Positions 7,101 to 34,100 of a stretch of 52,280 nucleotides of DNA are shown here, piece after piece (position 1 is the first letter of the stretch; each line of letters starts with the position of its first letter). Location of the stretch: contig NC_081355.1 of assembly GCF_030684315.1 (NCBI RefSeq), positions 84,654,924 to 84,707,203 on the forward strand, written 5' to 3'. This stretch comes from Stegostoma tigrinum (lineage: Eukaryota). A program made the translations under genes and the position numbers. Under the pieces are notes generated by a model that saw only the letters and a list, made by a program, of their open reading frames with translations, was not told the DNA's origin and did no database searches.

Positions 7101-10100
7101 AGAAGAAAATAAAACAACAGAAGCTCAGTCTAAATTCATTTGACCACATATTGCTTTTATTTTACTTACTGCAGCACCACGAGCACCAGCTGGACCAGAA
7201 TGACCAGAAGCACCAGTTTCACCCTGAAAAGAAGAAGCTATAAGTCAGTCGATGATGATTACAAAAAGTTATAGATGTGAAAAATATTATGAGCATTGTG
7301 ACATTGATGAGAACAATGATGATATGTGTGTGAATTGTAAAAACAGCAATGGACAACATGGATGATGGTGACATTAATAGAAAGATCATGTAAGCTTCAG
7401 AAACTTACCCTATCTCCAGGAGGACCACTGGGGCCAGGAGGACCACCAGGACCGGGAACACCCTATCAGAGAGAAATTTGACAATGTTTAGACAAAATGA
7501 AGGATAAGTTCAGGTTTGGTTGGTGTGTACTTGCAGACACAATGGTATGAAATGCTTAACTTTATTGCAGAGAACAATTATTGGGCACTTACCCGTGCGC
7601 CATCTGGACCTGGACTTCCTTGAGGACCTGCTGGACCTACATCACCCTATAAACACAAATAATCAGATTTAGACAGTATGCAAGATAATGCAGCTACAAG
7701 AAATAACAATGTATATTGGTGCTTAATATCTTGATGAATTCTTTAAAGAATTGTCTTAAAAGTACTAATAATATTATACTTCTTTGTGGATTATATCTTG
7801 TGACCACCAGTTGAATTTGCTCTGTTTATGCTTCCACTATAAAGTATCTTTAAATCATTAAAAAGATACTAAAAGATTGAAACACATAGAATGAGCCATA
7901 ATTATAAAGTGTCCAAAATGAAGCACAGAACACATTTCAACAGTTCTTATTTAAATTGGTAGTAGTGCATTCTATTGAAGAAAGCAAGGCCTATAGAAGG
8001 CTGCGATATGAATCTGTTAGAAACCTAGGCACCACTGAAAGGAAAATAGAAAATATCTTTATATTGTTTAAAAATATATTGAGAATTTTTAAAAAAAATT
8101 ACCTTTTCACCTTTGATACCAGCAGCGCCAGCAGCACCTCTCTCACCTGGTGCACCCTGAGCACCTGGGGCACCTACAAAACCAGGCAGACCAGTCACAC
8201 CAACTTCACCCTAAAGAGGAGTAAAGATTAACTGGTAAGTTTCTGACAGTTAATTAATACAAAACCCAACTTAAACCACTCAATACCCATTGATACCTCT
8301 TTCTAAGAAATTCAAAGCTCGAATGTGGAAGGCCAGCAGCCCTGCTGGGAGAGGTAGGTGCAGCAGGGCACCACAAAGGCTCCTCAAATTGGAGTCATCC
8401 TCAAAAGTGTGAATGAAGTTTTGAAAATAAACAATGAGGCCAATTGAGGGGGGAAGCCCTCCAGATAAATGGCATTAGATGTATTGTGATCTTTCATCCT
8501 CACAGTCCTTACTTTGAGGTACGAAGCCTCTCACTCCCATAGTCCATTGGATTGCTGCCTGTAGGCAATTTCCACAGACCTAGGTTTATGCTTATACCGG
8601 GCGATTGCAGCAAAGTACCCGCCAATGCCCCAATTATGCACTTAATTAATTGGCTACCCATCATTGCTTGTAAGGTAGTCAGTGCTACATTGACCCTGTG
8701 ACCAGTCTTACTGCCCAGAAGGAGAAATATGTCAGGTCAATGACCCAATGCTCTCATTTCTGATTTCATTCCAAAACCTGCCTCAAGGGATCAGGAGATT
8801 TTGCCCTAATGGTCAATAAGACATGCAGCACGTTACTAGCACAACTTAGATATGGTAGATAATGATATGAAATTTGAAGGTCTTTATGCTAGAAGAATGG
8901 GATAAAGTAAACCAGTTCCCCTTTGAGTCATGTTGTTAATAAATGTTGTGGGTCAGTCCAGTTGCCTGATGGCTGACTTGCAATGCAGAGTGATGCAAAC
9001 AGTGCGGGTTCAAATCTCACGCCAGCTGAGGAGGACTCTCTTTTTCAACCTCTCCCTTCATCTAAAGTGTGGTGACCCTCAAGTTAAATCACCATCAGTT
9101 CTCTCTCCGTTTTGAGAAACAGCCCTATAGACCAGTAGAACTATAGTAACTTTGTTATGAGGCTTATATTTAAATATTTCAAACAAATACGACAATAGGT
9201 CAAGAAATTGACATCAAAGCGTGGGCTGAATAGTGATGGAATTTAAGTTTTAAAAAGTTAAGAGCTCATATTTTTCAAAACTTGTTGGGAAATGTGAAAA
9301 GTGTTTCATTTTTGAATGACTCATAGGAGATCTTTCTCTGAAAGTTTTCATTGCATTCATAGTGCAGAGTGGTTTCACTTTGTATTGACACAACATCTAT
9401 AATGAAAATGTAATCTACATCCGATATCATGGGTCAGCTAACATTGGATAAAGTGGAATGAGGCACATTGACAGGGTTTCCACACTCACATTTAAGAGGC
9501 AGTTTAGGCTTTAAGCTTGATTTATAATACACAAGAGCATTTGGTGTAATACTGGAAAATAGTACCTCATTAAGTCTAAATTCTACTTTAGATATATTAT
9601 ATTTATGATCCTTTATAGTATAGTATTACAGATATATATATTTCTTTGCCGAAAACAATTCATATGGTATGAACAAAATTAATTTTCATTTCGTTAATTC
9701 ATAATTGACCTAAACCTGATAGAACATTATTAAATGTCTAGGCACATGCAAACAGTAGTGACAGCTATTTCAATATCAGATAATTATTTAATGTTGACTC
9801 TGAATTTATTTAATTTTTTATGTAGACAAGGGAAATATAGTCGATTTGCTTCCCGCCTTGTGGTGCAATAATATCATGGATTAATTTTAACAAGTGTCAT
9901 AACTTTTAAAGTGAAACAAACTTCAGTAGAATTATCAAAATGTAGTGTAGGAAGCAACCTATTCGTGTATTACAGTTATCTGCAGGAATTTAAAAAGTGA
10001 GCAATCAGATATTGTGAGAGTTTAAGAGTTACTAATTAGTTGCACATTGGCGATGTAGATAATTATATTTTGAGATATAAATCAAGTATTCTCCTTGCTT

Positions 10101-13100
10101 TCAGAGAGCTTTTAAAAAGGCATCAGTAGTTCAACATGATTTGTTGCTTCACCCTACCTTTCCACCATCAGGACCAGGAGAACCAGAGGAACCGCGAACA
10201 CCAGGAAGACCTTGTGCACCTGGACTGCCTCGTTCACCTGGAGGACCTCGTTCGCCCTAAACAGGAAATTATGAATCATGATGCATTAATCATGATGTTA
10301 TCACATTACATAGATTGCAAGTGTGAAACAGAGAAACTTAAACTTACTCTTGCACCAATTGTACCAGGACTGCCAGCATCACCTCGTAGACCCTGTGGAG
10401 AAATTGACATACTAATAAGACATTGCAACATTAAAATGCATTACAAAGTAAAATCTGTAAAGAAAAGAAAAAAAAATTTCCCATTATGAGGAAGCTATTT
10501 TATGAATGCTATTTAGCCCTTTGGATTTATAATTACACAATTCTAAAGTATTGGTAAATTTTCAGCTTTTCTGTCTGGGTTGTAACTAGGCAGAATTAAT
10601 AGTTTGCATAGAATTCAATCCATTTGATTTTAATTCAACTGAAATCAATGCTATGAAAATTAGACGGATTCTAAAAAAGGCACGCAATTTACTGCAGTAA
10701 ATTATCAAACAGCTAGTGAAGATGAAATTCTGCTCCAATATCCTTCAACAAAGTTAATATATACAGTGCATATAGAATGACTATTGCTAAGTTTGTTTAT
10801 CTTAAAGCAAATATGTAAATTTGACATACTTATCTAAACTAGAATCTTATCGCATGAATCCATGCATGTCAGGATATGATAACATGGATAAGAATCTGAA
10901 GTATTTTCAATAGTGCGGCACATGGCACATACAGTGTGCAAGCATTACTCAGTAGAACTCAACATGAAGTGACAAGACCATTAGCTCTTTAAGATTTCCT
11001 TTAAAATGTATCCCAGGTAAGCATTTTTTTTTTACCTACGATTGCAGACAGATTGCTGATAATGTTTTCTTAAGGTTCAATGTGAGAATGGGATGGACCT
11101 CTGGTTATGTTCATTAGCAAGTTGCGCCTGACGTATTCTGCCAATACTTGCTCAATAGACTGGATAGTGTGTGGTTTAGTTCACAGCTTTACAAAATTGT
11201 TATGATGCAGAGGATGATATTTGGCCCATTGTGTTTGCTCTGGCTTTCAGGAACATAGACTATAAGAACAGGGAAGCTATGCTGAATTCGTATATGGCTC
11301 TGAGAGACCTAAATTGGAATATTGTGTACAGTTCTGTGCACCACACTTTTAGGAAGGATATGATGCATTTGAAAGAATGGAGAAGACCTTTTTCCCTGTA
11401 ACCTTGCACTTTGTTTCTCTTTAAATAATTATCCAACCTTCTCTTGAATGCCTTAATTTTACCTGCCTCCACCACATTTGTTGGCCATGCATTCTAGAGT
11501 ATACTTATTTGCTCTATCAACAAATTTTCTCTCACTTTACATTTGCTTTTTTTGCAAATCATTTTAAAACTCTGGCCTCTGCATTTTGATTAATTTACAA
11601 GTAGGAAAACCTCCTTATCCACTCTGTCTAGATCCATCATGATTCTGTAAACAGCTATCATGTCACCTCTCAGCCCACTTCTCTCCAAAGAAAACCGTCC
11701 AACTTCTCCAATCTTACCTCATAATTGAAATGTCTCATCCCTGGACTATTCTTGTAAATTTATTTTATATTCTCTCCAGTGTCTCACATCCTTCCTGAAG
11801 TGTGGTGCCCAGAACTGTACACAATACTCCAGCTGTGGTCTAATCAGAGTCTTACATAAATTCGTCATGACCTCCCTGCTTTTGCACTCTGCTCCCATTT
11901 ATGAGGCCCAGAGCACTGTATGCTTTATTGCCTGTACTACATGTACATCCAACTGTCTCTCAGCCTGCTTTAAGAGAATGTCCTTTATTCTATATGCTGC
12001 TCCATGTTCTTTGTATCAAAGTGCATCTCCTGTTGTATTGAGCTTCATCTGCTAAATATTCATCTACTCCACTAATTTGTCAACGTCCTTCAGAATTTCT
12101 ACACTGTTCCCTTCAGTTTACAATTCATCTAAGTTTTATGTTATCCATAAATTTTGAATCTCTTTCGTGCTCACCAAGACATAGATCATTTATATATTTA
12201 TCAAGGGTTCAGTCCTGAGGAACTCCACTCCTTCCAGCTCAAAAAAACCCATTAACCATTATTTTCTGTTTCCTATCCCTTGGTCAATTTTACATCCATG
12301 TTGATACTGTTGCCTTATATTCTATGAGCTATAACTTCCCTCACAAGTCTGCTGCATGGCACCGTATTGAATGCCTTCTGGGAGTCCATGCATACCACAA
12401 GAATAACTGTGCCCTCATCAACCTTCTTTGTTACCTCTTCTAAAAGCTTCAGCAAGTTAGTTAGAACAATTTTATCTTAAGAAATCCGTGCTAACTTTTC
12501 TGAAACAACCACAATGTCCCATATCAATATTATTTCTCCCTAAACAACTGTTTTGAGACATTGACCGACCATCAAAGATAAACTGACTGGCCTGTAATTC
12601 CTGGGTTAATCTTTACAACCTTTCTGAACAAAGGCCTAATGTTTGTTGTTTCAAAGTTCATATTGGCATAATTTTGAATCAGACATTTCAGATCATTGAA
12701 GTTCATACATGGAGATCATATACGTCTTGGAGTGGGCAATTTATTATTTGTCTTACCTGATTACCTGGTTTGCCAGGTTCTCCAACAGCACCAGAAGGTC
12801 CAGGCATCCCCTACAGTGACAGAAAGAAAAGCAGTTCAGCACTACAATAACAGATAGAAGGGACTTTATTTGTGAAAACATGCAGCTGGCAGACAAAACT
12901 AGTATTGCATATTTATAGAATCCTTTATTGTCTAAAAATAAAAAGAAGTAAATTTTGGAAAATTAATTTATTCTACATTCTTCTCTGGAACTACATCAAA
13001 TCTTTAATAAAATATAATACAGATACTGTTGTTGGACGTATTTCTTAATCAGTTTATACCAACAGCTTCCTTTTACTATTTCAAAAAGGAATTAGTCCAG

Positions 13101-16100
13101 TATTTTTAATAAAGAGAGGAACTTGTTCTGAGTATGTTAAATGTTTGAGTAGTTATAATATGGACAATAATTTGGACCCTTAAGACTTGAAATTCGTATT
13201 TGTTGCTTTTGACTAAAGTTGATGATATGAGAAATCTTTTAAATCCATCTATTTTGTAACAAGAGCGTATCTTATCAATTTAACACTTAGCAAATGCTGT
13301 TGTATCAACATTTCAAAAACAGATTGCTTTAATGCAGAATTATATTTATTAGTAATGCATGTATTTTATTTGTTGGACACAATACAATATCTTTTGGAAA
13401 CTAAGATTTAGTTCATGGGACGAATGGATAGGTAGAAAATGTCATGGTTGGCTAACTACAAGCTGCAGCTGCTTGTGCTCTGTTCTTTCTCTGAAATTCT
13501 GTGTCATTAACTAGGCCAGCATTTTTAGCCTTTGAACTGAGTAGCTTGCTTGGCCATTTCAGAAGTCAGTTAAGAGTTATCCACATTGCTGAGGCTTGAA
13601 ATCACAAATAGGCCAGGCCTCCTAGGGACAGTAGATTACCTTCTCTGAAAGACATTAGTGAACTATATGGATTTTTACAACATTAGATACTTACATGGTC
13701 ATCATTACTAAGACTATTCAGTTCCAGATTTCCTTCATTAAATTAAAACTCCACCAGTTGGTAATTTGAAACCAAGCCCCCTGAGCATCAGCCAATGTTT
13801 CTGTTTAACTAGTCCAGTGATAAATCCACAATTAGGATTGTTTACATCTATCAGTGATACAATATAGGTAAATCCTAATTCATTGTTTGAAGCTCATTTT
13901 GACACATTTTATTATTCACATTAGTCACATAGTGACTGTAATAAGACTCAGCTGCTCATTTACAATTTGGAAAAGATGTTTAAATACAATTGCTACAGAT
14001 ATTTTGTGCAATCAGTTAGGCACATTTCAATATAAATGTAGGAACATGCATTATTTTAAAAAAAACACATGCATTTTAAATTTAAATCAGAGTACAAATT
14101 GATTGCAACCTACCTGCATTTTACAGTAAAATGTGCAGAATTGTTTACATATTTATATGTCTCATTTTAGTCTGCCATTCCATATGAAGGTATTATAATT
14201 AATTTAGCTAGCCTATTCTGTTGGATCTGGTACCAAAAAAGGATACCCAACTTCAGATACACACCTGGAAACCAACACTGCCAGCGAGACCTGTTTCACC
14301 TCTTGGACCTGTAGGACCCTAAATAATAAGAACACTGAAATGTTTATTTGACCAAATTGCTGTATGATAACTATATCTACTTTTCAACTTTGTGTATATG
14401 GAATATATTAAAATAATTTAGTCAGTTCATTCAGCGTCAATATTTAAAACTTAAATTGCATTAGCCTTTAGCAGTCAAATAAATTTATTATTAGTTTAGC
14501 CACTGTGCAACATCAGGTATACCAATACTTATCAACATTGCATGAATAAAACATTATCACATTTCAAATAACAACCTCTAGAAAAGGTAAGATTTTCCAA
14601 ATTAAACTAAATTAAATTTTAATATAGTATGCTACATCCAATTTCTTTCCGTTATTTTAATCAAGGCGTTAACCCGGGCATTTTAAGCTTGTGAAGAACT
14701 TTGAAAGATATGTAAAGAAAAATGAATTATATAGAAGGTATTAAATTCATCAATCAATATTCATACAACATCATTTTAAGGTCTACTTCTGTATTCAAGA
14801 TCTGTAACATAGTTTTATGTTTGTAATTGTTTACTTACTGCAACACCAGGAGGACCCTGTACTCCAACTTCACCGTCTTTGCCAGGTGCCCCCTGAAAAA
14901 CAAAAGTACTAGAAAATAAATCATCAATGCTATTACTTAGCGAACACCACTTATTGCCATGTGTGTATTCCTCATAATGCATTTAAAATTCACAACAAGT
15001 AGTTTAATTACATTTTGCATCTGTCATTTTGGAGATTCGTGTGATCCTTTATCCTCCAGAGTGCTCTGCTTCCTGGATTAGTGACTTATTGCTACATCCT
15101 TTTTCCTCCAGAAATCAAGGATCATCTATAAATGTATGCATTTTCAATATGTGATAAATGTCTAATTTTGACTTGTGGTTGTTGTGTTATCCCCTAACGA
15201 ACTTTAATTACTTACAGCTGATCAATAGAATATTGATAATAATTGCTTTTTACCCCAAACACCAGTGATGATTTTTAAATGTTCCCTGTTGCCTTTGTCA
15301 GAGAAAGAAGTGTCAAGGAGAAGAAAGCCCGAAAGCCTGTCAGCTGAATTGCCTACTCCTGTTCCGAGCTCTTATGTTTCTTATGAAGGGTATTTTGGAC
15401 TGCAATTTATTCACCTGGTTTAACCTTCAAGCCTGACTCAACATCGCTGAGCAAATTCTCTCATCTGCAGTAAGCTCAAGGTCATTTTAAGTTGTAGTAT
15501 TCTGATTGTAATGCTAATCTAAACACACACAATTCAGAGCTATACCAGATATTAAGGATCTAAATAGAACAGGTATATTTCTATTTGAAAGTTTCATGAG
15601 ATCAGGACGACCACTCTGTGTGGAAGCTGCAGAATTTTCCCCAGGTCTGAAAATGGCAAACTACGTCTATTTTTCTCCTGCAATTTGCTTACAAATTTTA
15701 ACCAGAAAATGAAAATGATTGACGCCTTGTGGCTGTGGCCTTTTGTGGGGTGCTTCGGATTTACTGCAAATTTCGATATTTGTTTCTGATCGGAGTGGAA
15801 AATTGCCTATTTGGTAACACCTTGCTTAATTCACGTTCTATCAAAACTTTTCTTAAGTTTCCATTTCCATTACATGACCATTGTGAAGGAATTGAAGGAG
15901 GACAAACTCCTGAAATGCAAATCAAATTGGCATTTTTCTGCAATAAGTATGTAAATGTCTATTTCAGCTTTTCCTATTTCCTTTAGATATTTTTGAAACT
16001 GTTTTCTTTTGATTGTCTGAGTTGCTAAAGCTCAGGCAGTGTTTACTTTTTAGACAAGTAGCACTACACCTTTGAATCATATACTGAAACAATGCATATG

Positions 16101-19100
16101 AATGCTAACGCAGCTGTCTGAATCTCACCCTTTTGCCATTTTAGTAGAGTCAAGGACCCATTAAATCAATCAGTTGATCCCTCCACTAAAATGGTGATGG
16201 AAAAAAGATATGTTAAAGTTTAAATGCCTGTATTTTAAGGCAGAATTTCAGGTCAATATTTAAAATGCTTGCCATAATGATTCTGCGCTATTTTACCAAA
16301 AAATGAACTCTTGTGGATACGGGAATATTATACAAAAAAAAGTTAAGAGTTTCTCCAGTGCCATCACTCCTGCAGCTCCCACCCTTAAATGGGGTTTTAA
16401 AACTCACTGCCATTTTGAGCAACTAAGTGGGCACATTGTGTTGAATTTTCCAAACCTGGGATGGTGGGGTTGGAGATGGTAGGGTCTGAAAAAATAACAG
16501 GGAGTTGTGTTGGAACGGCCCCAAGTGCATTGGAGCCCGGTATTAAATTTACCAACAATGTCACACTTGACACTGATTATTCAGCACTGTGTGTGACAGA
16601 GACTCCATCCCTTCACATTCCAAGTCGGCAGTTTTATGGAGCTCAATGAAGCTAATGGCCTAACAAGGAGGCCAACAACATGGAAGACTTCACCCGTTGC
16701 CAAATACCTTTGGCAGTGTTTTCACCTATTGACAATAAATAGGCTCAGCCTCTCTAAAATTCTTTCAATTCAACTTTGGTCTTGAAGGAGCTATCCATGG
16801 GGATCACCATCTCCAATATTGCTTGGCAGCACATGTTCAGTTGGCATTATTGGGAGCCACCTACAGTTCTTAGTTGGGTGGTGAACACAAAGCAGGAAAC
16901 TAGGAAGCTAACTCTGGGAAGGCTTTTTCACTGTCCTTTCCCAGCAAACGATGACTCAGGGTCCCACTTGGTCCTGGTGTAGGGGTTCCAAAGACACCAG
17001 GAAAATCCAGCATTATGCATTGACTTATAACAAGTATTAAATAAGCAATATTGCTAAAATGTATACGTACACGTGGACCAGCAGGACCGACACTTCCTCT
17101 TTCACCAGGCTTGCCAGGTAGACCCTTGGAAATGAAGTAGAAATAATAAGTTACAGCCAAATTACAAACATTTTTCTCTCTGAAATTTTGAGAAAACTTA
17201 ATTTAAATTATTTATGTGAAGAATTGTTTATCTAAATTTCATTTTATTTATCAGGGTTAAAAAGGGTTTGTTTCTGAACTAAGGAACAAATACTGGACAA
17301 TATATGGTTACCGGAGAAAAAAAAATACTTTTGCATAATTTGACTTCCTGCATTGAGAATGCAAAAATTGGCATCTCTGCATTAGCATTTATAATGCTAC
17401 GGCTACCAAAAATGTGCCATTTCGCTTTCAGAGGGTTTTCCTAGCTAGCTATAAATATCACTTAGCCATAATCCTAACAGCTGACTCATTCAATGCATGT
17501 GTCACCAAACACATGGTTTGCATCTATTTAAGAGTAGAATTGACCTTAAAATCACTTGTTGTTGATCTGACTGAAGCTGTCTTTTGAACAGCAACATTAA
17601 AATCAGAACACAGCAAAGAATTGGCTGTCATAAAAAGTTATTTTATATGTTTGTGGAACATCAAAAAAATTTTCAGGCAGAAGTTATATCAACATCATTC
17701 AATTAATTTCAGTTTGTTAAAATTATTTTGTAAATCAACGGTAAAGGCTAGTCAGAAAATGTTGTGACAAAATATTTTGCAATGATGAATTTATTTACTA
17801 ATACAAGTGTAATTGTGTACTTACTGCAGCACCCTTTGGACCAGGGAAGCCCATCATACCAGCCTGACCTCTTGGGCCAGCAGAACCAGGGGGACCAGTA
17901 CGACCTTCTTCACCAGCTGCACCCTAAAATATATGATCTCTGACAATGAAACAATTCTCTTCACAAGTTACCATAGGTTATTGTTATATGTAGCAATTAA
18001 TTGTAATGTTGATTTATTATTTTACATCCATGCACGTTATTAATAATTACAAAAACATTTGGGTGAATATTCTGCATTTGTTATTCATTTGTAATTCTAT
18101 AGTAGTTGGTATTATAGCATACGGTACAATGCACAAATCTAACACATTAGTATTCTTTAGTATTATAAGAATTACTTTTTATATTGAAGAAAATTGTGGT
18201 CTGGATGACAGAAGATTCAAATTAATTGTGAATTGCTACTTATCCTATGATATGATATATGATATGTAGCGATATTTAAATCACAGCAACATTTACATCT
18301 TTAATCTGACAGTCTATTTCTTGTGTGAAATGCTGGGATGTAAATAATATTATCATCTGAATAGTTCTCTAATTATGACCAGATGGTAATACTTAAAACT
18401 GCAGCCTCATCAAAGTAAACTGGTATAACTGTATTGAGATGGTTGATATTATTAATCAATGCGACTCAAATTCAGTGTTCAATGTATAATTGGTGTTGTC
18501 ACGTGGATGCTCCTTTCTAATAAGCTGAAGGCCTGAACTTTTAAGTCATGAAATATTGCTTTGGTACATTGACCTGCTGTGTGCTGACAGTCTTAGAGAT
18601 ATTTTCTCCATTTTTTTGTAATTTCAAAGGTAAAGTTGAAAGCACTGTATTTTAAATCCAGAATATTAAGTATATGTATGGTAAGCTTAAACATGTATGT
18701 ATATATCTATATATATAGAGTAAGTATATGTGTTCATTTTAGGTAATCAATAACTAGTGTATTTAACTATATATTTGATTTAATAAAACTAATTGTGATG
18801 TGCATTTTTTGTGCAGGAAATATGTTTCTGTACAAAATTAAAAGAAAATATTATTTCATGTTACTTGTCATAGCTTTTGTTAAATAATAATGAGTATGCA
18901 ATCTTATTGCATCATAAATAAGTATTTGTTAGTATTACTGTATGGTACAGAGTTTGCAGTTTCTGTACCTACATTAATAAACAATTTGAATTGCTTCTTA
19001 ATTAAAAAAATGTTACCTTAGAGGTTAGCAAAACCTAATAATTGAAGCCTTTTCATTTTTAATGTTCTGCAAAAAGATAATGTAATATCCCCATGCATTT

Positions 19101-22100
19101 GCCATGCTTGATTCAAGCCTATTCTTAGATTGAATAAGCTGTCAAGAATGGGGAGCAGAAAACCTCAAAAACAACTTACAGCAGGACCTGATTTGCCTGG
19201 AGCACCTATAATGCCAGTACTACCTACGATACCCTGAAAAATAACACATTATTGTAAGGTGAGAAAACTTACTGGAAGACCTTGATTTCCCGCAACACCA
19301 GTCCTACCAGGTTGTCCGCTATGACCCTATATTTATTGAGGAAAGCAAAATAATTTTAGCTGTCATTCTATCATGCATTGAACTAAGATACTTCCTTTTA
19401 TGCTTATTGTGAAATCTATTCATGTTGTACGGTTATTAAAAAGACATCATGGGTTAATTTTAACCAGGATTAACATCAATCGCATCTGTGGAAATAAAGT
19501 GCATTAAATGTGTTCACAAAATACAAATAAGAAAAACTGTCAAACAGCAACTCCAAACTAAGAGACAAGAAAATGAAAATCAGCAATGCTGCAATCTCTT
19601 GATGACTTCTTTATTAGAAGAAATCAGAACTAAATTAAAACAGCCAAATAACATCATACATTTTAATAAAAATGCCATTTCTGTATTCACAACACAATTT
19701 TGGGACCTCTGCTAAAAGGAAAATTGCAATTAATTAGTATTATAAACTGCAATAGTATATCTGAGTTGACAAGTACAAACATCACATGCATCTGAAATTG
19801 TACAGGCGAATAATTCAAGTCGCTTTCCTACTTAATTCCTTACAATTTGACAAAGCCTACTGCTTTGTGGTTGTTTCAGTTTTACTTACCCGTGCACCAG
19901 GTGAACCGCTTTCACCAGGACGTCCAATATCACCAGGAGACCCTTTGGCACCGGCAGAACCAGTTTCACCACGTGCGCCAGGAAGACCCTAAAAATAAGT
20001 TAAACAATAAGGTAGCATCATTACAGGCATTCCATATGAATATACCATACTTGTCACTTAATGGAAAAAATGTCACCATGCATAAAAGCAAAACACTATT
20101 TTCAAATTATATTTGATACATTAAACCATAGCAAAACAAAGTTTACCAAGCCACCAACTGATCCGTCACGACCTGGGATACCACGGTTACCAGGAGCTCC
20201 CTGCATGGAAAAGTAGAGAAAACATTAAACATCTACTTACGGACTGTGAAAATGTGTTAAATTTGCTGGGGTGTTACTGATAAAGAACTGTAACTCAAAA
20301 TGAATATTTTCTCATTTGTTTAATGCTGTTTACTACACTATTAATTCATATATAATGTTTATAATATATAATCTAATATCATTCTGTAGATATAGGACTA
20401 TCCCACATAAAAAAAACTTATCAGCATATGAATTGTTAAAATGTGCAATTAAATAAACAGCATTAAATTTTTTTTAAAAAGCTGAATAAGCTGCAATGTT
20501 TAATATTATTCAGATTCAAATTTTGTGAATATGTTGAATTTCTTAATACACTAAGATTCATTGAACAAAACCATCATACTAGGATTTTATAATTAGCAAC
20601 AGAAGGTATTAAACATTCCTATTTCATTAAGAATCTGTAAATATTATTTCAAAATCACCATTAGTTATTGTTGTAAAATTGAAGCACCCTCCGTATTATT
20701 CAGTAATATGTTAATATAAATTAAAAATAATTGTACCCTTTCACCAGAAGGTCCAGGAAGTCCCTGAGCGCCAATTTCACCACGAGGGCCTTTCTTGCCT
20801 TCTTCACCAGATGGACCAGAAGCACCTGATGGGCCAGATTCACCCTGATTTCGGAGCAAGAAAGGCACAGACATGAGCAATGGCAATTAAAAACGTGAAA
20901 TAGAGTGCACAATTAACTGTAAAAGGCATGCTAAATACAGAGTACTCACAGGCTCGCCTTTGCCACCAGTCTCGCCCTTGACACCTTGAATACCTGCATC
21001 ACCCTGTTTTGAAAAAGAAAAGGCTTATGAGGATTTTATTCATAACTTCAGTTAAATTCCATTTCTGCAACTCACAGAGGAATTAGTTATAACAATTGCT
21101 TAGTATAGGATTTTATAGTTCACTTACAGGGACTCCCCGTGCACCTGCAGGACCAATTGCTCCAGCTGGACCAGCGAGACCACGTGGACCTGGGAAACCG
21201 GGAGCACCAGCAACACCTGCAGCACCCTACATAAAAAGACACAAAACCAACAATGAATATCTTAAAATATGAGTGGGCCTGTCAATGAGGTAGTTTATGA
21301 AAGCATTAAATAAGTGTGCAGATGTACTTACAATTTCACCCTTTGCTCCAGTTAGACCATTTGCACCTGCATTACCCTGGGATTAGAAAAAAATATCATG
21401 AATACAGTAGATGCAATTTTTCCTGTTATGCAAAATCATATCTTAAAATGTAGAATTGATATTGTCACCACAAGTACTTACGGGAAGACCCATTGGTCCA
21501 ACGGCACCTGCAGCACCAGGCTCACCTCTAACACCTTGAGCACCACTTGGACCACGAGCACCAACGGGTCCAACTTCACCCTATTTTGTACAGAGATAAA
21601 ACAAATTAAAGTTGTGCATTTAACATATGTTATTATCGTGCATAAGTGTACTTAGCAAAATGATAAAATCTCATGGTACTAAAGTAATCTGATACAAGAC
21701 TAACTTTCTTTGTAAACTTCTCTCTCAATGGTATTATTACATGGTAACTGAACATAAAAAAAACTCAGATAATTCATGCTTGCCTAATATAGATTATTTA
21801 AATTCTAATTATTTTTCATTCTGTTGCTTTTCTGGCAAGGTAAAACAAATGAAATCTTAACAGAAGTTGATTCTATCCAAAAAAAACCAAATGCTATTTA
21901 ACAATTTCAATTGAAGACTAATATTTCATTGAATATTTTGATGTTAAAATAAGCAAGTTATAACTTTATTGTTGTTATTTACATTTATTCAAATTGTGCA
22001 GAACCTTTTAAGCTTTTCAATGACCAAAGTGGCATTTTGTATATCTGAATGGTTGTATTTTCAGTCCAGAATCTATCCTATTTATAAAGTAGATGTGCAT

Positions 22101-25100
22101 TTGACTTTATTCTGTGATTTAACTTAAATGATATATAATGATCAAGCCAATCAGAGGAAGCTACCTAATGATATAGCTCAAACTCAATAAACTAATTTGT
22201 TGGAATTTGTTCAAGATTGCTATTTAGAACAGAAATGAAGAGCACAGTACTCTTATCTCTCTTCATTTCCATATGTAATAAAGATTGACATTTCTTTAAA
22301 ATCATATATATGCAACTGTATAAGTTAAAACTGCAGAACTATTTTACTTATTCATATTTTTATATATCATGTACAGTGTATATTATTACAATTAATATGT
22401 AATCTTTATAAATTACTTTAAACATGCTGAATACAATAAAATTGCTATTTCTAGAAGAAAATATAACATATTTGGTCTATGTACAGTTGCATTGAAACTA
22501 CTAAATGATTGTTGCAATGAGTTGTGAAATACCTGAATCACAAATATTTATTACCATAATCATTGTTAGACTATAAGTATATTAAAATTGTATGATAAAT
22601 TCTCACAGAACTGGAAATTTAGATTGTAAATTTTGACATATTATAATGAACTGTGGAAGAGTTTCTTTGAAGCATTCTCATAATTCCTAATGGTTTACCA
22701 CAAAGGGTATTAAAATAGAAGATTATCCCAACCTACAAATAATATTTTGATGTTATTACATGCTCACTTTTAAATAAAATTATGCTGCATTCATTTATTG
22801 TAATATTCACAACCATTACCTTGAGACCAGGGCTGCCTGGGAAGCCTGGGGGACCACCACCACCTATGGATCCCTAGAAAAGAGAAAAAAGCCAATATTA
22901 AAAGTCAGTTTTGTGTGTTCTTTTTACGTAGAATATATTATCTGTTTCCATGCTATATCAAATGTCTGTAGGGATAATCCTTATACGATACTGATGAAAA
23001 CTACATTAATTGGTTGAAAGGTCCACCAAAATAATTCAATGTTAGCAGAATGAACCTGTTTTTCTGACTATTACAAATTAGGCATCAATACCTGGCGAGA
23101 TATTGTTCCAATATTAGAGCTAACTAACCACAGTATATTATGCAATCTTTACAGAACTGCTACCATGGACAGTAACTTCTATAGAAGTCATATAACATAA
23201 ACTGGTATATTTATATCAAAAACAGAAGTTGTTGGAGAAGGTCAGCAGGTCTGGTGACATCTGTTAAGAAAAATCAAAGTCAACTTTTTGGGTCCAGTGA
23301 CCCTTCCTCAGAACTTCTGAAGAAAGGTCACAGGACCTGGAACATTAACTCTGAATTTTCTTCACAGATGCTGCCAGACCTGCTGACCTTTTCCAGCAAC
23401 TTCTGTTTTTGTTCCTGATTCACAGCATCTGCAGTTCTCTTGAGTGTACTCTTCTTGGTGTTCCTCTTAAGCCTGACCCTTTAGGGAAGGAAAGCTGTTG
23501 TCGTTATCTGGTTTTTGTTTAGTATATTTATGTCTGTTTTTCATATTATTAATGCATCGTGTCAGACTGATAGTAACATGCAAACAGATGTGGTGATGAT
23601 AATTGAGTGTAATTTGATACTATCCAACAACAGACACCCTGATTGTGATGGGTGATTAACACATGCCCATTAAATGCAATCCAAGCAACATGCTAGCTTT
23701 GTACTGCCTGCTCATTTCAAGTCATTCAGAATCCAGTCAATGCAAGCAATGCTGCTGGTTGCCTGGATATATTCTGTTAATATCATGAGTGGTTAGCTTC
23801 ATTCTAAGTTGGCCTGCAGTGCTTAAATCTTGGTCAGGTCTCTGAAAGTGGATCTGCCTTATAGTTGGTCCAGTTGCTTACAGCCATGCAGACACTAACT
23901 GTGATTAGGGAAAGATGGAAGTAAACAATTTTCAAGATTTTCCAAGGCTGCACTGCGTGTTTTTGTCAAGGAGGTACAGAGGAAAATAGGTATCATTTAG
24001 TTGCAAGGGAACTAGGATATCATTCCAACCAACTCTCCAAAGTCTGTGGGAGCTGATAGTGATGGAAGTCAGTGTCAAGAATCAATCCCTGAGGATCCAA
24101 ATATAATGTCACGAGAAGTTTAATGACCGCTCATGAATGATCAAGACAAGTGAATTCATCTCCAAACGTTATGTTCCATTAACTGCACTACTAGTCTCAC
24201 ACTGATTTATTTATTGACTTCACTTTATCTTCATCTACCAACAATTTCAATAAGGACTCAGAGTCAACATTCCTGCAGGCTATTACACCTTCATATTCTT
24301 AACACAGTAGTAAGCTTTATAACCAGATCTCACAACTTTCACACATTGGTAAGCATATAACTTTGGTCACAGCATCATCTCAACAGATTATACTCCTGTT
24401 CTATTACAAGACAAGCTGATGGATAATTGAAGACAGCAGGAGCTAAGTAGACAGGGGCAGGCCTTTCCATATCTCCTAATCCCCATGGAGGAGATGATGC
24501 CAGGTCTTGTGGGAGTGGTGACTATAAAGGTTGAAGCCAGTGGTAGGGATGTTTGTTTCATTCTTTAATGGAATGTGGGTGTAACTGATTAGGACAGCAT
24601 TTACTGCTCATCCCCAATTGTCATTGAACTGACAGCAATTAAGAGTGATCCACATTGCTGTTGGCCTACAGTCACACAGAGGCAAGACCAGATAACGACA
24701 ACAGCTTTTCTTCCCTAAAGGGTCAGGCTTAAGAGGAACACCAAGAAGAGTACACTCAAGATATGAGATCTACGTGTGACACCACACATGAGTGATCAGC
24801 TAACGGCAGGGAACAAGGAGAAGCGGGTACCAGCTTATCAAAGGTCGACATGCAGACAGGTCCTTCTGCCGAACTCAGGTGAGTATTTGAATGATTTGTC
24901 TTAAGGTGCATTCTGAATGGGTAATGCCTGATGCATTGTGAGCCTAATACAAAGTCTGTGGCCAATGTCAAGGGTATGGAGGAGTCTGGCACGATTTGGC
25001 ACAGGGCTGAGCACATATCTTGAAGCCCATTGTTTCCAACATGGAAGTGTTGTCAACATTAGGAAGACATCTTTGATGTCTTCAATGGTTTGTGTTATAC

Positions 25101-28100
25101 CTTTCTCTGAGTAGAAGCAGTCTCACTGCCTCAGTGAAAGCTTAGTCTCCTGTCATTACAAGGTCAGCTGGCATAGTTGTAGACTACAATATTAAAGGAG
25201 TTTTCAGCATTTTACAGCAGTACACCAATCTGTCTTAACATATTACTGGGATTTCTGAGGCATTAGAATAGGGAACAGGCAAGTGGCTCCAAGGAGCAAA
25301 AATGTGGTATCCTCTCTTGGGAAGACAGTATCATCACCTCATTTCAACAACTTTGCTAGTGCACTTGTTGTTACATCTTATCAGCAATCGCAGACTGTTG
25401 TCGTCTATTTCAGGTGCTGCAGTCTGCCCTCAAAGTCCAGAGTCACTGAAGGGAGTACTGCAAAGCCATTTGGAGTCTTCTATTTTCAAAGTCAGCTGCC
25501 TTCTGCTAGCTATACTGCAGTCACTGGGTAAGCACCATGTATAAGCACCAGGAGAAGCAAAAGCACACTGAGTACAGGCGCAAATGAAATGCACAGGGAA
25601 GATTATTTGGCTTTTGCGTACTATTTGGCAATATTTGACTTTTAAAAAATTGTTTGTTTTATCAATTGCTTTTATTTAGTTCCCTTATTTAAGAAATGAT
25701 GTAAATGCATTGGAGGGAGCTCAGATCAGGTTAGTTTGATTGAGAAGAGTCGTCTGTTTTATAAGGATAGATTGGGCAATCTTGTTTCTATTATAGTGCA
25801 GAAGACTGACGAGTGACTTAATTAATCCTTAATAGTCTTGAAAAATTTGGAGATGGAAAGGATGTTTCCAATTGTGGGTGATAACTAGGGGATACTGTTT
25901 TTTTAAATAAGGCTGCCTGTTCTGTGACAGAGATGAAGAGTGTTTGTTCGGAAGGTTGTGCGATTATGGAACTCTCTTCCTCGGAAGGCAGCCAAAGCAA
26001 AGCCATTGAATATTTTTAAGGTAGAGGTAGGTAGCTTATTGTTAGCAAGAGAATCAAAGATTATCTGGGGTGGACAGAAACGTGGCATTGGAACTTGATG
26101 GTAAATTAGACAGCATGCAGCAGACCACCATGTATTTTAACATACATATCATGGAATATTCTGGGATTCCTCCAGAGGACTCTAGGTAGCAGAATGTGCT
26201 CTATTACATTTTAAGTGAGAACTTGGTTTTCTGGCATGCATGAATTTGGGTTGAACAGTGCCAATAACCTTTGCTTTTCCATTGACTGTGGCTCCTGAGT
26301 GGGCTTATTGGATTGCAGAATCACTCTTATAACGTATTAGTAATTGCATATTTGCTGTTAAGATGATGGATTAAGTTTTAACTGAAAATATGAAGTGGTA
26401 TACTTACAGGAGGGCCAACAGGTCCAGGCAAACCATCACTGCCACGGGCACCCTTAAAGGAAACGCAAAGGTGGCATGTATAAACTTACTACAACCAATG
26501 AACATATAATTCTACAATACAAACAATAAGTAGACATTGAATTGATAATAAGCATAAAAGCAAAATACAAACTTTCATGAATATGTTGAAATGGATTATA
26601 ATAAAGCATTACACAGAGGCGCAACAGTTATAATCATTTGCAATATTTTAAAAATCATCTTGGAGATTCATTTTTAATGGTATATATTTAACAACATTGA
26701 AATACATTATTGGTGACCATTAAGCAGGACCTCAAATCAATGTGAAGGCAGAGGTCTGAATCAAGTGTATTGACCACCATACCCATGATTTGATCTGCCC
26801 CTGTTGTGTGAAGCTCCATGCTGGGAATACTAACAACTGGCATGTGAAACTGAGAAAACATTCAAAAATTGGAAACTTACAGCTGGGCCAGCAGCTCCAA
26901 TACCACCTCTCTCTCCTGGAGAACCACGAAGGCCCTTTTAGAAAAGAAAACAGGTTTGTTAATTCTGCATAAGAATGGATTTAGAATTTTTTACATGGCA
27001 TGTGTAAAAAATTGTTGTTAAGAAATGTGCAATGCATGATTAAAACTGCTAATATTTTAAATGATGAAACACATACCACAAGTCCAGGGCTTCCATTTGC
27101 TCCTGGGTTACCAGTTTCACCCTGGCAAAAAATGAAAACAATATTTTAGTTGTTGGCTTTTACAATATTACTAACACAAGAAAGCATATGAAACAATAAA
27201 ACTTTAATGGGTGATACTTTTTAACCCTGCCTAACAACATAATCTATAAATGTTTAATTCAAAAATGATTAATCCTTTCAAAATACTTCATTGTCTAATT
27301 TCTGACCAGCTTGGAACAAACAAAATAGAATAAAAACCTTTGTTTTGCTCAGCACACTCTTCGAGTGCGAAAACTGTTCTGAAAGTAATGGAAGAACTCC
27401 TGCAATGGTGAATGACTCAGTCACTGTTTATACAGATTGTTTGATGTCCCTCATACTTAGGAACAGGGGTGGGACATTTACAATCTAATCCTAACATTGT
27501 CAACTATTTTGATGAGAACAATGTAAAATACCCAATAATTTGAATAAAGTAATGTGACTAGCACAATAAATTGGATATTCAGCACTACAATTTGCATTGT
27601 CAGATTATGTGAATCGAACAACTTTAAATGAAGAGAAATAAGTAGGATTAAGAAAGGAAATGCTGGTAAGGTAATAATAAATAATGAAAACGACAAGTGC
27701 TGGAGATCACAGCGAGTCAGGCAGCATCCATGGAGAGAAAGCAAGCTACCGTTTCAAGTCTCAATGACTCTTCATCACAGCAAACTCACCTTCCCCTCAG
27801 TTCCCCTGTCTGCATTTCACAGGGGTTGTTCCATCTGTTCGTCAACCACTAACAACATGCCCCCTTCCCAAGGCAAATTGCCATCTTACTGCAGAAGATG
27901 CAAAACCTGCCCCTTCACCTCCTCCCTGCTCTCCATCCAAGTGCCTAAACAGTCTTTCCAGGTGAAACTGTATTTCACCTGCATCTCTTCCAATCTTGTA
28001 TATTACATTCACAGCACCCAATGTGGCCTACTCTACATTGGAGAAATCAAACACAGCGCGGGTGACTAGTTTACAGAACACCTCCAATCAGGGTGCAAGC

Positions 28101-31100
28101 ATGACCCCAACCTTCCTATAGACGGTCATGTTAACACAGTGTCCTGCTCACATGCCCTCTGGCTGTCCTTGGCATGTTGCAATGCTCCAGTGAATCACAG
28201 CAAAAACTGCAGGAGTAATATCTCATCTGCAAACTAAGATAATAAAGTGTGAAGCTGGATGAACACAGCAGGCCAAGCAGCATCTCAGGAGCACAAAAGC
28301 TGACGTTTCAGGCCTAGACCCTTCACCCCGAAACGTCAGCTTTTGTGCTCCTGAGATGCTGCTGGGCCTGCTGTGTTCATCCAGCTTCACACTTTGTTAT
28401 CTTGGATTCTCCAGCATCTGCAGTTCCCATTATCCTCTTCAAACTAGGTATTTTACAATATTCTGGGCTCAGTGTTGAGCCCAACACCTTCAAGTAGTGA
28501 ACACATTCCTTCCCTTACTTTTAGATTTACTGGTTGTATTCTTGGTCACCAAGCCCTCTCTCCACTTCCCCATCTCCAGTGGGAATGTCTGTTCTTTCCA
28601 GTTTAGTAGTCAGACACACCATTGTTCAGCCATTCTTACATTCTGATCACTTAATCTGGACTAGCAACATCCTTTCTCAAGCATCTGCAATAATTTGCTC
28701 CTACAATGATAAATAGTAATATTTTTCCATTTATGTAACAAAGAATACTGGCATGTATTCGAAAAGCACTTTGCTGTTTAATGTTGCATAATATGCATGT
28801 CTTTGTATTCATAAAATGTAAGGCTATCGATGTAAGCTTTTTTAGCACTGACTCTGATACAATACCATTACAATCTTTCCATGCTTTACTCTACACCTCT
28901 AACCTTAACCCATCAGGTCTGATATCAAGAAGAGTGGGGGCAGGTGTGAAGGGAAGAATGTTTGTTCTTATTAAATAATTTCAGTGATAATAGAGTTTAC
29001 TTGGATGCCACTTACGTGAACATTTGCCTCTTATGTCAGTAAAATGATTTTGTGTAAAGATAACACCAGATCCATACCATCCATCATGACCTTCGATAAA
29101 TCTCCATTCTGAGCACTGTTCACTGGAATCATGATGTGCAAATTATGTAACTGTTCTGATGTGTGCCCACAATGGAAAACAAGCTTCTCTGACTCTTATG
29201 GAACGTTTCTATATTTCTAAAATCCAGTTATCAAACAGAATCAATAAATATAGAAGGCTGAATTTCTTGGTTGGGTTGTAACCCCAAAGTCAATCTCAGT
29301 TTGGGATCAGGAACCTGGAGGTGAGTATGGTGAGAGGTTGAATACTATCTTCCCAGATGCGTCCAATTAAAAAGCTGCCCTAGGAAGACCCATCCATTGA
29401 ATGATAGCAGACGGAACAGTTAAGTAGGAGTGGCCATTGGGAGAAGAGGTTGCTGCCGAGGCAGGCAGGATACTTTGAGGGTGTTTCAAACTGTGCATAA
29501 AAAGGGTACAGCTGTCAGATTGTCATTGTGCAAGGGGTATCCACCCACTGTTGCAGAGTTTGGGAGGAGTATCCAATGGCTGCAGATTTGCTGCCAAAAG
29601 ATCACCTCCTGCTCCAATCTGGGCTCTGGCCTCACTGGGGTGGCCCTCTGCCATTGAAGGGAAACTGATAAGTAGCAGTAAGTACAGAGAGTATTCCTTT
29701 ATTTGCTGTTTCGTAACATACTCCCAACTAATGTTTAACAGTTCAGGTTAAAGTAACTTAATCACAACTTTATTTCTTACCTTCTCACCGGCAGCACCTG
29801 GCTCTCCCTTAATTCCATCCAAACCATTAAAACCCTGTTATGAAGTGGAGGATAATAAAAACGGCCAGTTAACAATTGTAGCGCTAATTATTTACTGCAG
29901 CAGAAAAAAGATATTCCAAGTGTCAAAAATAAGATGTTTAACTCACTCGGTGTCCTTTCCTGCCAGAGAGGCCAGGGGTTCCTGGGAAACCACGAGCACC
30001 CTGAGAAGAGGAAACAGAAACACGTCTGATGTTTTTTCAAAATGAAAGGAGTCTGGCGTTGTTACTGTGTCTGGGGCAGAAAGTACCAAATAAATATTTG
30101 CATTTAGTGCCCTCAGGTTAGATGGCGGATGATAGTAGATTTTGTATATCTGCATAAGCCTCACTGTGCAATGATTCTTACCTGAGCTCCAATAATACCA
30201 CGGTCACCAGCTTTACCAGGTTTGCCATTTGAACCCTAGGAAAAAAAAATACTTTTTGTATTAATAAAGGATTAATTAAGAAGGGATGCACATACTTTGA
30301 TAATATGAGATAAATTATATTTTTATTTAGCTAAGTTAGACTTTACATTTGCATCTTCTAAAATGCATTGCCGATGCATTTATTCATGGTATATGAATAA
30401 TTCTTAAGATAAGGAGAATGTTCATACAGTGAACATTCTCAATCAGGTGAATAGATTGATTAAATAACAATATAATTTACAGATACATGATAGATTCAAT
30501 ATTGCCCAATGGTGGTCTTCTAGACCAATTGGCAGTTTATCTTTATCTTTACTTCAAGGCTAAAATGGTCCTCTGATATCACTCAGTCATATCTGCGGAG
30601 AGGAACTATGGTTGTTTGCTACAATGAGAAAGTTAACTTGAATCCGTCATGTAGTCATGAATATTATACTGGTTATAGATGGTGGCAAAAGAAACATGGA
30701 ACTGCTGGCTAGTCATCCTCTTCGTTAGAAACTTGGACAAAATATAGAAAAACTAGAAACATGACAGGGATGGCACTAGTCTAGACCAACAAAGCAAAAC
30801 AGTCTTGTGCTGATTCGCCAGCTTATTTTTGACTGTATCAGTTTTTATTTTAATCAACTTGCAAAATATTGCCAGGATTTTAAATTTTAAACCAAATAAA
30901 GAGTTGCAGAAAATAGTTGAAATATTGTTCTGTGAGTTTTAGTAGAAAGAAGATCAGATGCAGTGAAAAATTGGCTGCCAATTCACAAAGGGCCTGTTTT
31001 GAAATGTTGGTATAGACCAATTTTACCTTTAATATTCTTTAATTTATTTATTATTAATTAATGGGACTCTTTTTATTGTATGACAGGCAAAATCAGAAAT

Positions 31101-34100
31101 ATATATTGTTGTGTGATGTGTAAACTTTGACCTGAATGAACAGATCTAGTATACAGATGATTTGATGCTTAATCTAGGATGTTTGCATCCCTAATTGTGT
31201 TCAGTTTAGATTTGTGACCTATATTATTAACATATTACATTAAGAAACCCTTTGCATTATTCTTTAGTTTATAATTGTGTGCCTGAAACATTACTTGTTC
31301 AATTGATTAAAAATTGGGAGAGTTAGATTTGCATTTAGGGAAGTTGCTGAATGTTTCCTGAAATTCACAATCCTAGTAAGGCTTCATGCATCAATATTAA
31401 TGAATTTAACATCTCTGACCATGGAACACACAGCACGTACCATATTTTGGAATTATGGTTGAAACTGGATTTAATTTCAAAACGTCCAAAGCTACAAAAG
31501 TACAAGAAGCTTGTTTTGCAATTGATAAGGCTCCATTGCATTTAATTGTCAAAATGTAATCAAAGATGTTTGTTCTAAGTATTATGGGAAGCACATACTC
31601 AGATTCTCAGAAATCAGATGATTGTTAATCACAGAAAGTAAAGGTACAAGTAATACTGTCAACGCAACTTAAGAATCATTTGGTTTCTTCCTTATATTCA
31701 AATGAAAGCTCTTTATAATCTGCAGGAAAGAGTAAAGGAAACTCAAGAAGTTACAGAAGGCCATTTATGGAATTATCTCCAAGCCAAATTCCAGGATGAA
31801 TTCACAGTTAGGTAATTCTTTAAAATATATGGCTTATTACAAATAATAAAGTCACTGTGATAGGCCTCATTTTTAAGCTTTGATAGTTCAGAGGTACTTT
31901 CTCCCTTCATTTTACTGAGCTCAATTCTGGATTAGGGATCTAACCAACATTGCAGAGTAATGAGGGGCTGTTTAAAGTTCTCAGTTTGAATTTAAGGATT
32001 ATCTGAAAACCAACTTCTAGTTTGCAGACATAAGTTTGAAGTATTCTGAACTACCTCTAATTTATTTTATCCACCTTTGCTTTACCTGAAATAAAGCTGT
32101 TGATAACCAAATTCAGTTTGGGTAAGCATCCCAACGAATGATATTACCTGACTGATACATGTGGTCATTGTTATTTAAGGAGCTAGCAGCATTTAAAAAT
32201 ATTGGTTCATACGTTACTTCTTTGAAATCCTCTGGAATTTTGTGCCTAGCAACATTGTAGCTGTACTTATGCCCATGGAGAGCCAAACCTCAAGATCGCG
32301 GCACAGTGCCAGCTTCTCAAGAGGCAATAAATTAGCAGAGCAGCCAATGAGCCCACATTTGGTAAATGAACTGTTACAAACTTATACACACTTACATCTT
32401 CACCAGGTTTTCCGGGTACACCTTGAGGACCACGAGGACCAACTGGGCCCTAGAGAATAAAAAGACAAAAAGAAAATCAATGCCAATACAAAATAGGAGA
32501 TTCACAAATCTCCTACTGTGTGGGTTTCCTCCAGGTGCTCCAGTTTCGTCCCACAGTCCAAAGATGTGCAGGCTAGGTGGATCGGCCATGCTAAACTGCC
32601 CATAGTGTTCAGGAGTGTGTGGGTTATAGGGGGTTGGGTTGGGGTGGGATGCTTCAAGGGGTAGTGTGGACTTGTTGGGCTGAAAGGCCTGTTTCCACAC
32701 TGTAGGGAATCTAATCAAATGATTTATCTTGCCACAAAATACATACTTACATTTCCACCAGGTTCTCCTGGAATGCCTGAAATTCCTGGGGGTCCAGGGG
32801 AGCCCTGAAAATGAACGCAGAAATTTTCAAAAATTCAATTCAGAACTATGTGAAAAGACTCAAACACAATAATTTCAATTGGAGGTAGTACAATGTGTTG
32901 CATAGTTTCAATTATAAATGGTGAAAAGCAGACTATCAAGAAGTTGTAAAACTTACAGGAGCACCAGAGCCTCCTTGAGGGCCTCTTGGTCCTGGTGGTC
33001 CCTGAAGAAAAATACATCATGTTAGAATTAGTGTATAATCAGTAATATAGTAACTAAACAATCTTTTAAAATATAAACACAGTATAGATGAGGATAAGGT
33101 AGACAGGACGACGATAGTACTGACGATATAACTAATCCACAGGCACCATTATGCTCTTGGCTGTCTTTCTGCTCAGTTCTTATAAACAGTTGGCACTTAA
33201 CGAAAGTGTAATCCATAAATACTAAACTACAACCTAACTTTGGGTGATCATATCACTAAATTGAAAGCATTTTAGCAGTTATAATTTTGATGAAAGTTCA
33301 CAGTCCAAATTACTCTCTATCTCCCTATACTTGCAGTTATTACAGCAGTTCCTGGTTTTATTTAGAGTGCCAGACTCTACAGTATTTTGTTTTCATGATA
33401 CTAATATTTTATCATATTTATATTTCAAACAATTTAGTCTATGGTTACGTATTAATTCTCTGCAAATTAAAGGTAAGTGTGATGACTTGAATCTTGTCTC
33501 ACATATGTTTCAAGGGCTTCACAATGAATTACTTTGAAGTGTAGTGAACTTTTATGTGAACAAAGGTCACAATTAATCATTTTTCATCAACAAACGTAAT
33601 GAATGGCCAGTTTATGTTTTGAACAACCTTGGTGTTGGTTGAAGGAAAATTGCCAGTCAGGACCCTAGAAGGATTCTCTGTTATTAAGTAGTGCTTTGGA
33701 CTTCCAACATCCAACTGAGCAAAAGAAACGTGCAAGTCGGTCAGCTGAAGGGCAGCATCTTCAATAACACTTCATCAGTGCTGCACAAAGACTGAGCTTA
33801 TATTTCTGCTGAAAAACTGGAACATTCCAGCAGAGGGAGCAGTCAACAGACACCCAAACTTAACAATGCTAAATATTCATTGAAAGAAATGTGTACATTG
33901 AAAGGAAATTGCTCAATAAAAAGTGAAAGGAAGGCAACATTTTCATCTGTTGTGTAATTATAATAATCAACAGTTCTTTCACTGCTGCAGTATTTTTAAT
34001 TAGAATATAATCTTCTGATAACCAATAGAGTTCAAGCTGCATACAATATTTTCATTCATAGTCATCTTTAATTTACTAATGGTTTATTCACCATCTTCAA

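Follow-up and report, generated by a model that had tools for sequence, protein, structure and literature searches.

The main helix of the vertebrate fibril-forming collagens is regarded as constitutively spliced, since its chains must stay in register, and the one way to vary such a helix is to swap an exon for another of matching length. The question raised by the locus considered here, a 52,280-nt stretch of DNA from the shark Stegostoma tigrinum (the window), is whether a type I collagen gene does precisely this, two 54-nt exons (24a and 24b) being found where the canonical exon series has one. The explanation that we favor, to which a probability of roughly 0.72 can be assigned, is that 24a and 24b are tandem duplicates used one at a time, i.e., sterically enforced mutually exclusive exons of which 24a is the default, and that its probable products are two equally long alpha2(I) chains.

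Identity of the gene

A scan of both strands for Gly-X-Y runs showed that the minus strand carries the helix exons of a single collagen gene, whose portion from the start codon to exon 45 occupies positions 1075..44552 and exons 46–52 lie just past the low end of the window. The exon sizes follow the canonical fibrillar series (45, 54, 99, 108 and 162 nt), with the addition of one surplus 54-nt exon between exons 23 and 25. The gene is a shark-type COL1A2, a clade A fibrillar collagen, as indicated by its signal peptide, its exons 2–3, its exon pattern, its 1014-residue helix and its C-propeptide: exon 1 encodes a COL1A2-type signal peptide in agreement with a teleost COL1A2 mRNA; the short exons 2 and 3 stand where a cysteine-rich exon could be, such an exon being absent as judged by reading; and the best named matches of the C-propeptide exon include CO1A2 of Amia and of Polypterus. 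Furthermore, the partial catshark Col1a2 contained in the part of the PMC4584932 supplement available to us has, by eye, long stretches in common with exons 35–40. Exon 25 finds a single 100% match in the 3.2-Gb genome, the next matches being paralogues (76% and 75%).

The N-propeptide exons 4, 5 and 6 (45, 78 and 51 nt) are located on the minus strand at 37951-37907, 37621-37544 and 35949-35899, respectively, the last of them encoding a telopeptide lysine and one helix triplet. When one copy of exon 24 is counted, together with exon 6 and with exons 46–49 beyond the window, the helix is exactly 1014 residues long, exon 24 corresponds to residues 361–378 and exon 41 begins at residue 766. This count reproduces both the placement of the segment at 361–378 and that of the collagenase bond at 775/776, which had been proposed in a previous sequence-only reading of this DNA.

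The two copies of exon 24 and their spacer

On the minus strand, exon 23 (19890..19988), the upstream constitutive exon of 99 nt, is followed by 24a (19273..19326), by a spacer (19234..19272), by 24b (19180..19233) and by exon 25 (17825..17923), the downstream constitutive exon, also of 99 nt. An exon scan bore out the earlier description of two 54-nt exons at this place; they are alike in phase (0), in their AG...GTAAGT boundaries, in having 6/6 glycines and in their open frame, while sharing 0/12 X/Y residues and being identical at 28/54 nt. The segment encoded by 24a is polar (His362, Arg368 and Asn374; mean hydropathy −1.09), whereas that encoded by 24b is hydrophobic and bears a lysine (Ile362, Lys374 and Pro377; mean hydropathy +0.99), in keeping with the contrast previously drawn between them. 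Tryptic peptides of 8 and 18 residues are predicted from 24a and of 14 and 12 residues from 24b, the 14-residue one having Lys374 at its end.

The spacer is 39 nt long, is bounded by GT and AG, has a TAA in frame and contains GTAAGT, two branch-like motifs, a U-rich tract and CAG. Its two branch-like adenines (19260 and 19255), which are candidate branch points, follow the donor of 24a at distances of 13 and 18 nt and thus fall within the ~20 nt formerly indicated. The next shortest helix intron, on the other hand, is not one of 97 nt, as had been stated: within the window it is intron 30 (91 nt) and in the gene as a whole intron 47 (87 nt), which lies just outside the window. The other collagen introns measured in this genome range from 87 nt upward and the 123 measured in the paralogues all have 92 nt or more, which makes the spacer an outlier. 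The splice-site scores are undiagnostic, the acceptors of both 24a and 24b being weak (10/17 pyrimidines, the median being 13) and that of exon 25 likewise.

As the sequence-only reading had maintained, the tandem arrangement is no artefact of assembly: the stretch containing 24a and 24b has a single match in the genome, the copies differ at 26/54 nt and each of two DNA runs (X3 and X4) provides one contig across 16900-23000 with 0 differences, both runs being possibly the assembly's own source and hence not independent. That one of the two might be a copy of some other exon was likewise ruled out, DNA identity being best with exon 24 for both. Indeed, among the 37 exons compared, exon 24 of the shark's own COL1A1 is the top DNA match of 24a (35/54) as well as of 24b (36/54); at the protein level, where it ranks second for both copies by BLOSUM score, the homology signal is weak.

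Among the genes compared, the duplication is specific to COL1A2 of this shark lineage. The three paralogues of the same genome, designated by reading as COL1A1-, COL2A1- and COL3A1-like (the third over approximately exons 8–45), have no extra exon among all their detected helix exons; in particular, the species' own COL1A1, where the presence of an extra exon had been proposed as a check, has a single exon 24, and the same applies to the other two. A single exon 24 is also present in 2/2 bony-vertebrate COL1A2 genomic loci, one of teleost type (L041) and one of tetrapod type (L045), and a scan of these loci and of the three paralogues detected no degenerate second 54-nt exon. The metagenome scan yielded 16 loci, of which 10 were examined and six weaker matches left out, and an exact 20-nt pattern gave 0 matches in the metagenomes. 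The protein library searched, in which full-length clade A chains are seemingly scarce, held no shark chain spanning exon 24, nor was there a shark exon-24 sequence in the paper supplements examined; the protein and metagenome searches together yielded this region from no further shark or ray. Among the solved structures, the rat collagen I chains were not reached with 24b as a query at E up to 10; they were reached with exon 23, which returned nothing on exon 24.

Use of the two copies in RNA

Six sequencing runs were found, none of them recorded as RNA, and four were compared: X1 and X2, RNA-like by guess, and the DNA runs X3 and X4. X1 and X2 belong to two studies of a related organism whose exon pieces differ from the window at 20/536 letters, and each contains one contig with exons 16 to 26 joined at the predicted sites; since, unlike in the DNA runs, the exons are joined at these sites, the two contigs are spliced. 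The joints 23–24a and 24a–25 are present in 2/2 of these runs and 24b is skipped in both. Thus, in the related organism 24a is spliced in without 24b, and routine double inclusion of 24a and 24b is not seen.

No 23–24b, 24b–25, 24a–24b or 23–25 joint is among those listed for X1 and X2. Of the junctions that the sequence-only reading had predicted, the two involving 24a were therefore recovered in the relative, along with the expected lack of a 24a–24b joint among those listed, while 23–24b and 24b–25 were not. Because contigs lose rarer variants, a joint missing from two runs is weak evidence of absence, so that these data establish the use of 24a alone and not the disuse of 24b. Of the two length-matched isoforms earlier envisaged, the one with 24a alone is thereby observed; no transcript with spliced 24b was found, and the second isoform is one that we infer. 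The only listed piece of an RNA-like run that covers 24b is record 7 of X2 (186 nt, depth 3.8), which comprises the whole exon plus 132 nt of the next intron and is unspliced; reading on past the exon in this way is what either unspliced RNA or an excised intron would do. The statements on joints and on conservation refer to the pieces listed, 53 further pieces of the runs lying outside that list.

Origin of the copies and selection on 24b

The comparisons fit a history in which exon 24 was duplicated in tandem and the copies then diverged in different directions. The event is younger than the separation from the paralogues, and neither of the two bony-vertebrate loci shares it; no remnant of it was found in the flanks of 24a and 24b. 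Nine exon 24s (three COL1A2, three teleost alpha1-type and the three own paralogues) served as a reference, and in 9/9 of them residue 374 is lysine and residue 362 is hydrophobic. Both features are kept by 24b, whereas 24a has Asn374 and His362; furthermore, 24b outscores 24a against six of the nine references, 24a being level or ahead in the other three. Judging from these residues, 24b is the ancestral-type copy and 24a, the copy in use, is the derived one, a circumstance overlooked in the sequence-only reading: it is the ancestral-type exon that is skipped.

The copies are saturated at the X/Y codons (13/36 nt identical), yet 24b keeps its 12 glycine letters, its AG and GT and its length; according to a simple model, the chance of a neutral copy keeping those 16 sites is 0.011 at 0.3 and 0.0007 at 0.5 substitutions/site. 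The coexistence of saturated copies with an intact 24b that retains the invariant lysine implies that 24b was under selection during the greater part of the period after the duplication. In the relative, where both exons are kept (24b by virtue of X2 record 7), 24b and the adjoining 132 nt of intron (19048..19179, minus strand) differ from the window at 1/186 letters, compared with 63/1224 in four other intron pieces (Fisher p 0.002) and with 20/536 in the exon pieces (p 0.02), both figures referring to the pieces listed and the first term to a single 186-nt contig of depth 3.8 from one run. The signal is mainly intronic, the 132 nt alone giving p 0.008 and the 54 exon letters alone, with 0–1 differences by chance, p 0.06–0.23. 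The surroundings of 24b seem to be still under selection and 24b is likely to be used at present as a coding exon. The earlier claim of an old duplication of exon 24 is upheld by these comparisons.

These same data can be read as the outcome of an exon replacement, in which 24a took over and 24b is a silent or nearly silent relic not yet decayed, the conserved intron stretch either repressing 24b or serving the splicing of 24a. Skipping of 24b in both RNA-like runs, with no 24b junction listed, is what such a replacement would produce; the concentration of the conservation in the intron (p 0.008, against 0.06–0.23 for the exon alone) points in the same direction, and shark genomes evolve slowly. 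The integrity of 24b, with its family-invariant lysine, in the face of a saturated partner is, however, hard to reconcile with a relic, and the absence of a junction from contigs that lose rarer variants counts for little. All in all, we consider this replacement unlikely.

How one of the two exons may be chosen

In the reading that we prefer, exon 24 of COL1A2 would have been tandemly duplicated long ago in this shark lineage, the copies being used singly. With a single copy in use, the helix has 1014 residues and stays in register with alpha1, which has one exon 24. According to the available text of PMC5740500 and PMC7969005, a donor-to-branch distance below ~50 nt blocks the joint assembly of U1 and U2. 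The distance is necessarily smaller in the present case, the whole spacer being only 39 nt, and since this is under the steric threshold the joining of 24a to 24b should be blocked, the spacer presumably leaving a spliceosome no room to form on the donor of 24a and the branch point of 24b. U1 bound to the 24a donor would mask the branch point of 24b and thereby make 24a the default, as fits the RNA contigs, whereas the choice of 24b, in some tissue or at some stage, would be brought about by the conserved intron stretch that follows it. The products would be alpha2(I) chains differing at helix 361–378, where they would carry either the ancestral-type segment (hydrophobic, with Lys374) or the derived one (polar, with His362 and Arg368 and without Lys374).

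The switch to 24b would need a regulator, for which RBFOX-type motifs offer a weak candidate. A TGCATG is found 50 nt upstream of the 24a acceptor (19372..19377, minus strand) and two GCATG, starting at 19107 and 19096, occur past the end of 24b, at 73 and 84 nt from it and inside the conserved piece; we take both TGCATG and GCATG to be RBFOX-type motifs. Of 38 exons, 24b alone has two GCATG within 100 nt downstream; the enrichment is, however, statistically weak (p 0.04–0.06), the motif is frequent in the gene (36 GCATG in 29,155 intronic letters), and the tetrapod COL1A2 locus, which lacks the second exon, has four GCATG-type motifs in the same introns. The layout of the candidate motifs, upstream of 24a and downstream of 24b, would fit that of RBFOX-switched pairs such as egl-15, a comparable layout around the switched exons being described for egl-15 and let-2 in the accessible portion of PMC4165533. 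An RNA structure acting as a switch was considered and rejected, the fold of 19040-19400 being no better than that of shuffled sequences (z −0.71) and the inverted repeats being short and AT-rich.

A competing possibility is that the spacer is removed as an ultra-short intron in a minor form, 23–24a–24b–25, which would encode a 1032-residue alpha2 helix. The GTAAGT, the two branch-like motifs, the U-rich tract and the CAG of the spacer are elements that such an intron would have, and the start of X2 record 7 coincides with the first base of 24b (window 19233). Were this start a branch of the assembly graph, the preceding letter should not be G, and 24a ends in A while both exon 23 and the spacer end in G; the start may thus mark a graph branch generated by rare 24a–24b joining, the chance ends of two or three reads being an equally likely cause. 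The main contigs skip 24b, however, no paralogue intron (0/123) is under 92 nt, and an alpha2 chain longer by 18 residues would be out of register with alpha1 and its one exon 24, so that a minor form of this kind appears very improbable. Equally remote is an unproductive splicing from the 24a acceptor to the 24b donor, in which a 147-nt exon with the in-frame TAA of the spacer would lead to decay, to less alpha2 and to more alpha1 homotrimer, for although both outer splice sites are intact, the Gly-X-Y pattern and Lys374 of 24b lie past the stop and would not be preserved, and no 24b–25 joint is listed.

Relation to known systems

The closest precedent is offered by let-2, the alpha2(IV) collagen gene of C. 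elegans, whose exons 9 and 10 are mutually exclusive and differ mainly in a helix interruption, as reported in the consulted part of PMC2119826; their spacer is 30 nt long and was never seen excised (PMC4165533, in the portion available), and a conserved element in the downstream intron drives the switch to the downstream exon (PMC1500816, likewise in part). The shark pair resembles that of let-2 in consisting of tandem homologous collagen exons separated by a spacer presumably too short to splice and followed by a conserved stretch in the downstream intron. The let-2 exons, however, measure 108 and 111 nt, contain a Gly-X-Y interruption and belong to a nematode network-forming collagen of which both forms have been demonstrated, whereas the shark exons belong to a vertebrate fibrillar chain with an uninterrupted helix, match exactly in length and share 0/12 X/Y residues, the second form being here a predicted one.

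COL13A1 and COL25A1 are transmembrane collagens, and the C-propeptide of a fibrillar collagen is removed before the fibril forms. As far as the available text of PMC8373072 goes, these two genes and COL5A1 are the only collagens in a human catalogue of 236 tandem exon substitutions. According to the same source, COL13A1 and COL25A1 have duplicated, substituting Gly-X-Y exons dated to Gnathostomata and are, in this respect, vertebrate collagens like the one described here; they differ in not being fibril-forming and in that their exons encode 29 and 26 residues, terminate in a non-helical tail and are 483 to 979 nt apart. COL5A1 shares with the shark gene the presence of equal-length, closely spaced duplicated exons in a vertebrate fibrillar collagen, its mutually exclusive pair being 63 nt apart by coordinates (PMC8373072 and PMC5740500, as seen in part). 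This pair is non-helical and located in the C-propeptide, as the title of a reference in PMC8887668 has it, whereas the swap in the shark chain would persist in the mature fibril. COL5A1 is among the entries in the supplements of PMC5740500, from which COL1A1/2, COL2A1, COL3A1, COL11A and COL27A1 are absent.

The steric class, exemplified by exons 4a/4b of OGDH, accounts for ~9% of the human clusters according to the excerpts of PMC7969005 and PMC5740500. OGDH 4a/4b is like the shark pair in that exclusion is enforced by a donor-to-branch distance below ~50 nt, the difference being that its branch point sits far from the acceptor, within a longer intron, whereas in the shark the whole spacer is 39 nt. 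A term search of PMC9741552 returned no mention of collagen, and the available part of PMC8887668 has nothing on a helix exon swap in vertebrates. No published main-helix case in a vertebrate fibrillar collagen was found within the scope of our search, most subscription papers and the RefSeq/Ensembl shark gene models being outside it. The novelty attributed to this exon pair by the sequence-only reading stands to this extent and was otherwise overstated, since substituting Gly-X-Y exons are known from let-2, COL13A1 and COL25A1. The locus is a known mechanism in a new setting, with the half of the mutually exclusive pattern that corresponds to 24a alone being documented.

Possible function

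What could be the use of a second segment at this place? Taking the D-period to be 234 residues, the exon 24 segment is at 0.54–0.62 of it and would presumably fall in the gap zone. A tentative proposal, to which we give somewhat less than even odds, is that sharks obtain two fibril materials of type I collagen from a single COL1A2 by means of a tissue-controlled splice switch in the main helix. The presumed default exon, 24a, drops a lysine that is otherwise invariant in the clade A chains compared and puts His and Arg elsewhere, while 24b would be reserved for a restricted tissue or stage, e.g., a mineralizing one. Teleosts have an extra alpha3(I) gene. If the proposal were true, the shark pair would represent a splice-based counterpart of teleost alpha3(I) and a natural test of the role of this segment in fibril packing.

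If 24b is used, the gene offers a natural experiment in which the chains are the same apart from one 18-residue segment with its conserved Lys374; even with a silent 24b, it would still exemplify the wholesale replacement of a collagen helix segment through exon duplication. In practical terms, gene models may wrongly join 24a to 24b, and work on shark collagen peptides should allow for two sequences at this position.

Other features of the locus

The exon 24 segment had been described as adjoining a GxMGFO ligand site; the motif is indeed present, as GMMGFP, in exon 25, but occupies helix residues 400–405 and thus starts 22 residues past exon 24. It resembles that of alpha1-type chains, three bony-vertebrate COL1A2 loci having GNIGFP at this position, and to judge from these few sequences a ligand site lost from other alpha2 chains may have been retained in the shark. 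In exon 41 (3086-2979) the predicted collagenase bond 775/776 is Gly-Phe, the COL1A1-like paralogue having Gly-Leu. Exon 46 (9662-9555 of locus L002) encodes a lysine at helix 930 in the context GLKGLR, i.e., at the position of the alpha1-type cross-link lysine, without the following histidine that is present in the COL1A1- and COL2A1-like paralogues; in mammalian alpha2 the lysine sits at 933.

In intron 23, ~150–180 nt from its start (19739-19709 of the minus strand), a branch-like TACTAAT occurs together with a pyrimidine tract and two tandem AGs, an ensemble that resembles an unused acceptor; none of the joints listed for the RNA-like runs leads to it. Copies of a short interspersed repeat occur in the introns and in the upstream region (39260-38960, 32700-32520 and 49100-48780), and one copy gives rise to a false plus-strand Gly-X-Y match (39244-39209). 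Elsewhere in the genome, the interval G000:C4:57886680-57889766 (L010) contains an open frame of 617 aa with single-frame Gly-X-Y and short interruptions, resembling a one-exon short-chain collagen.
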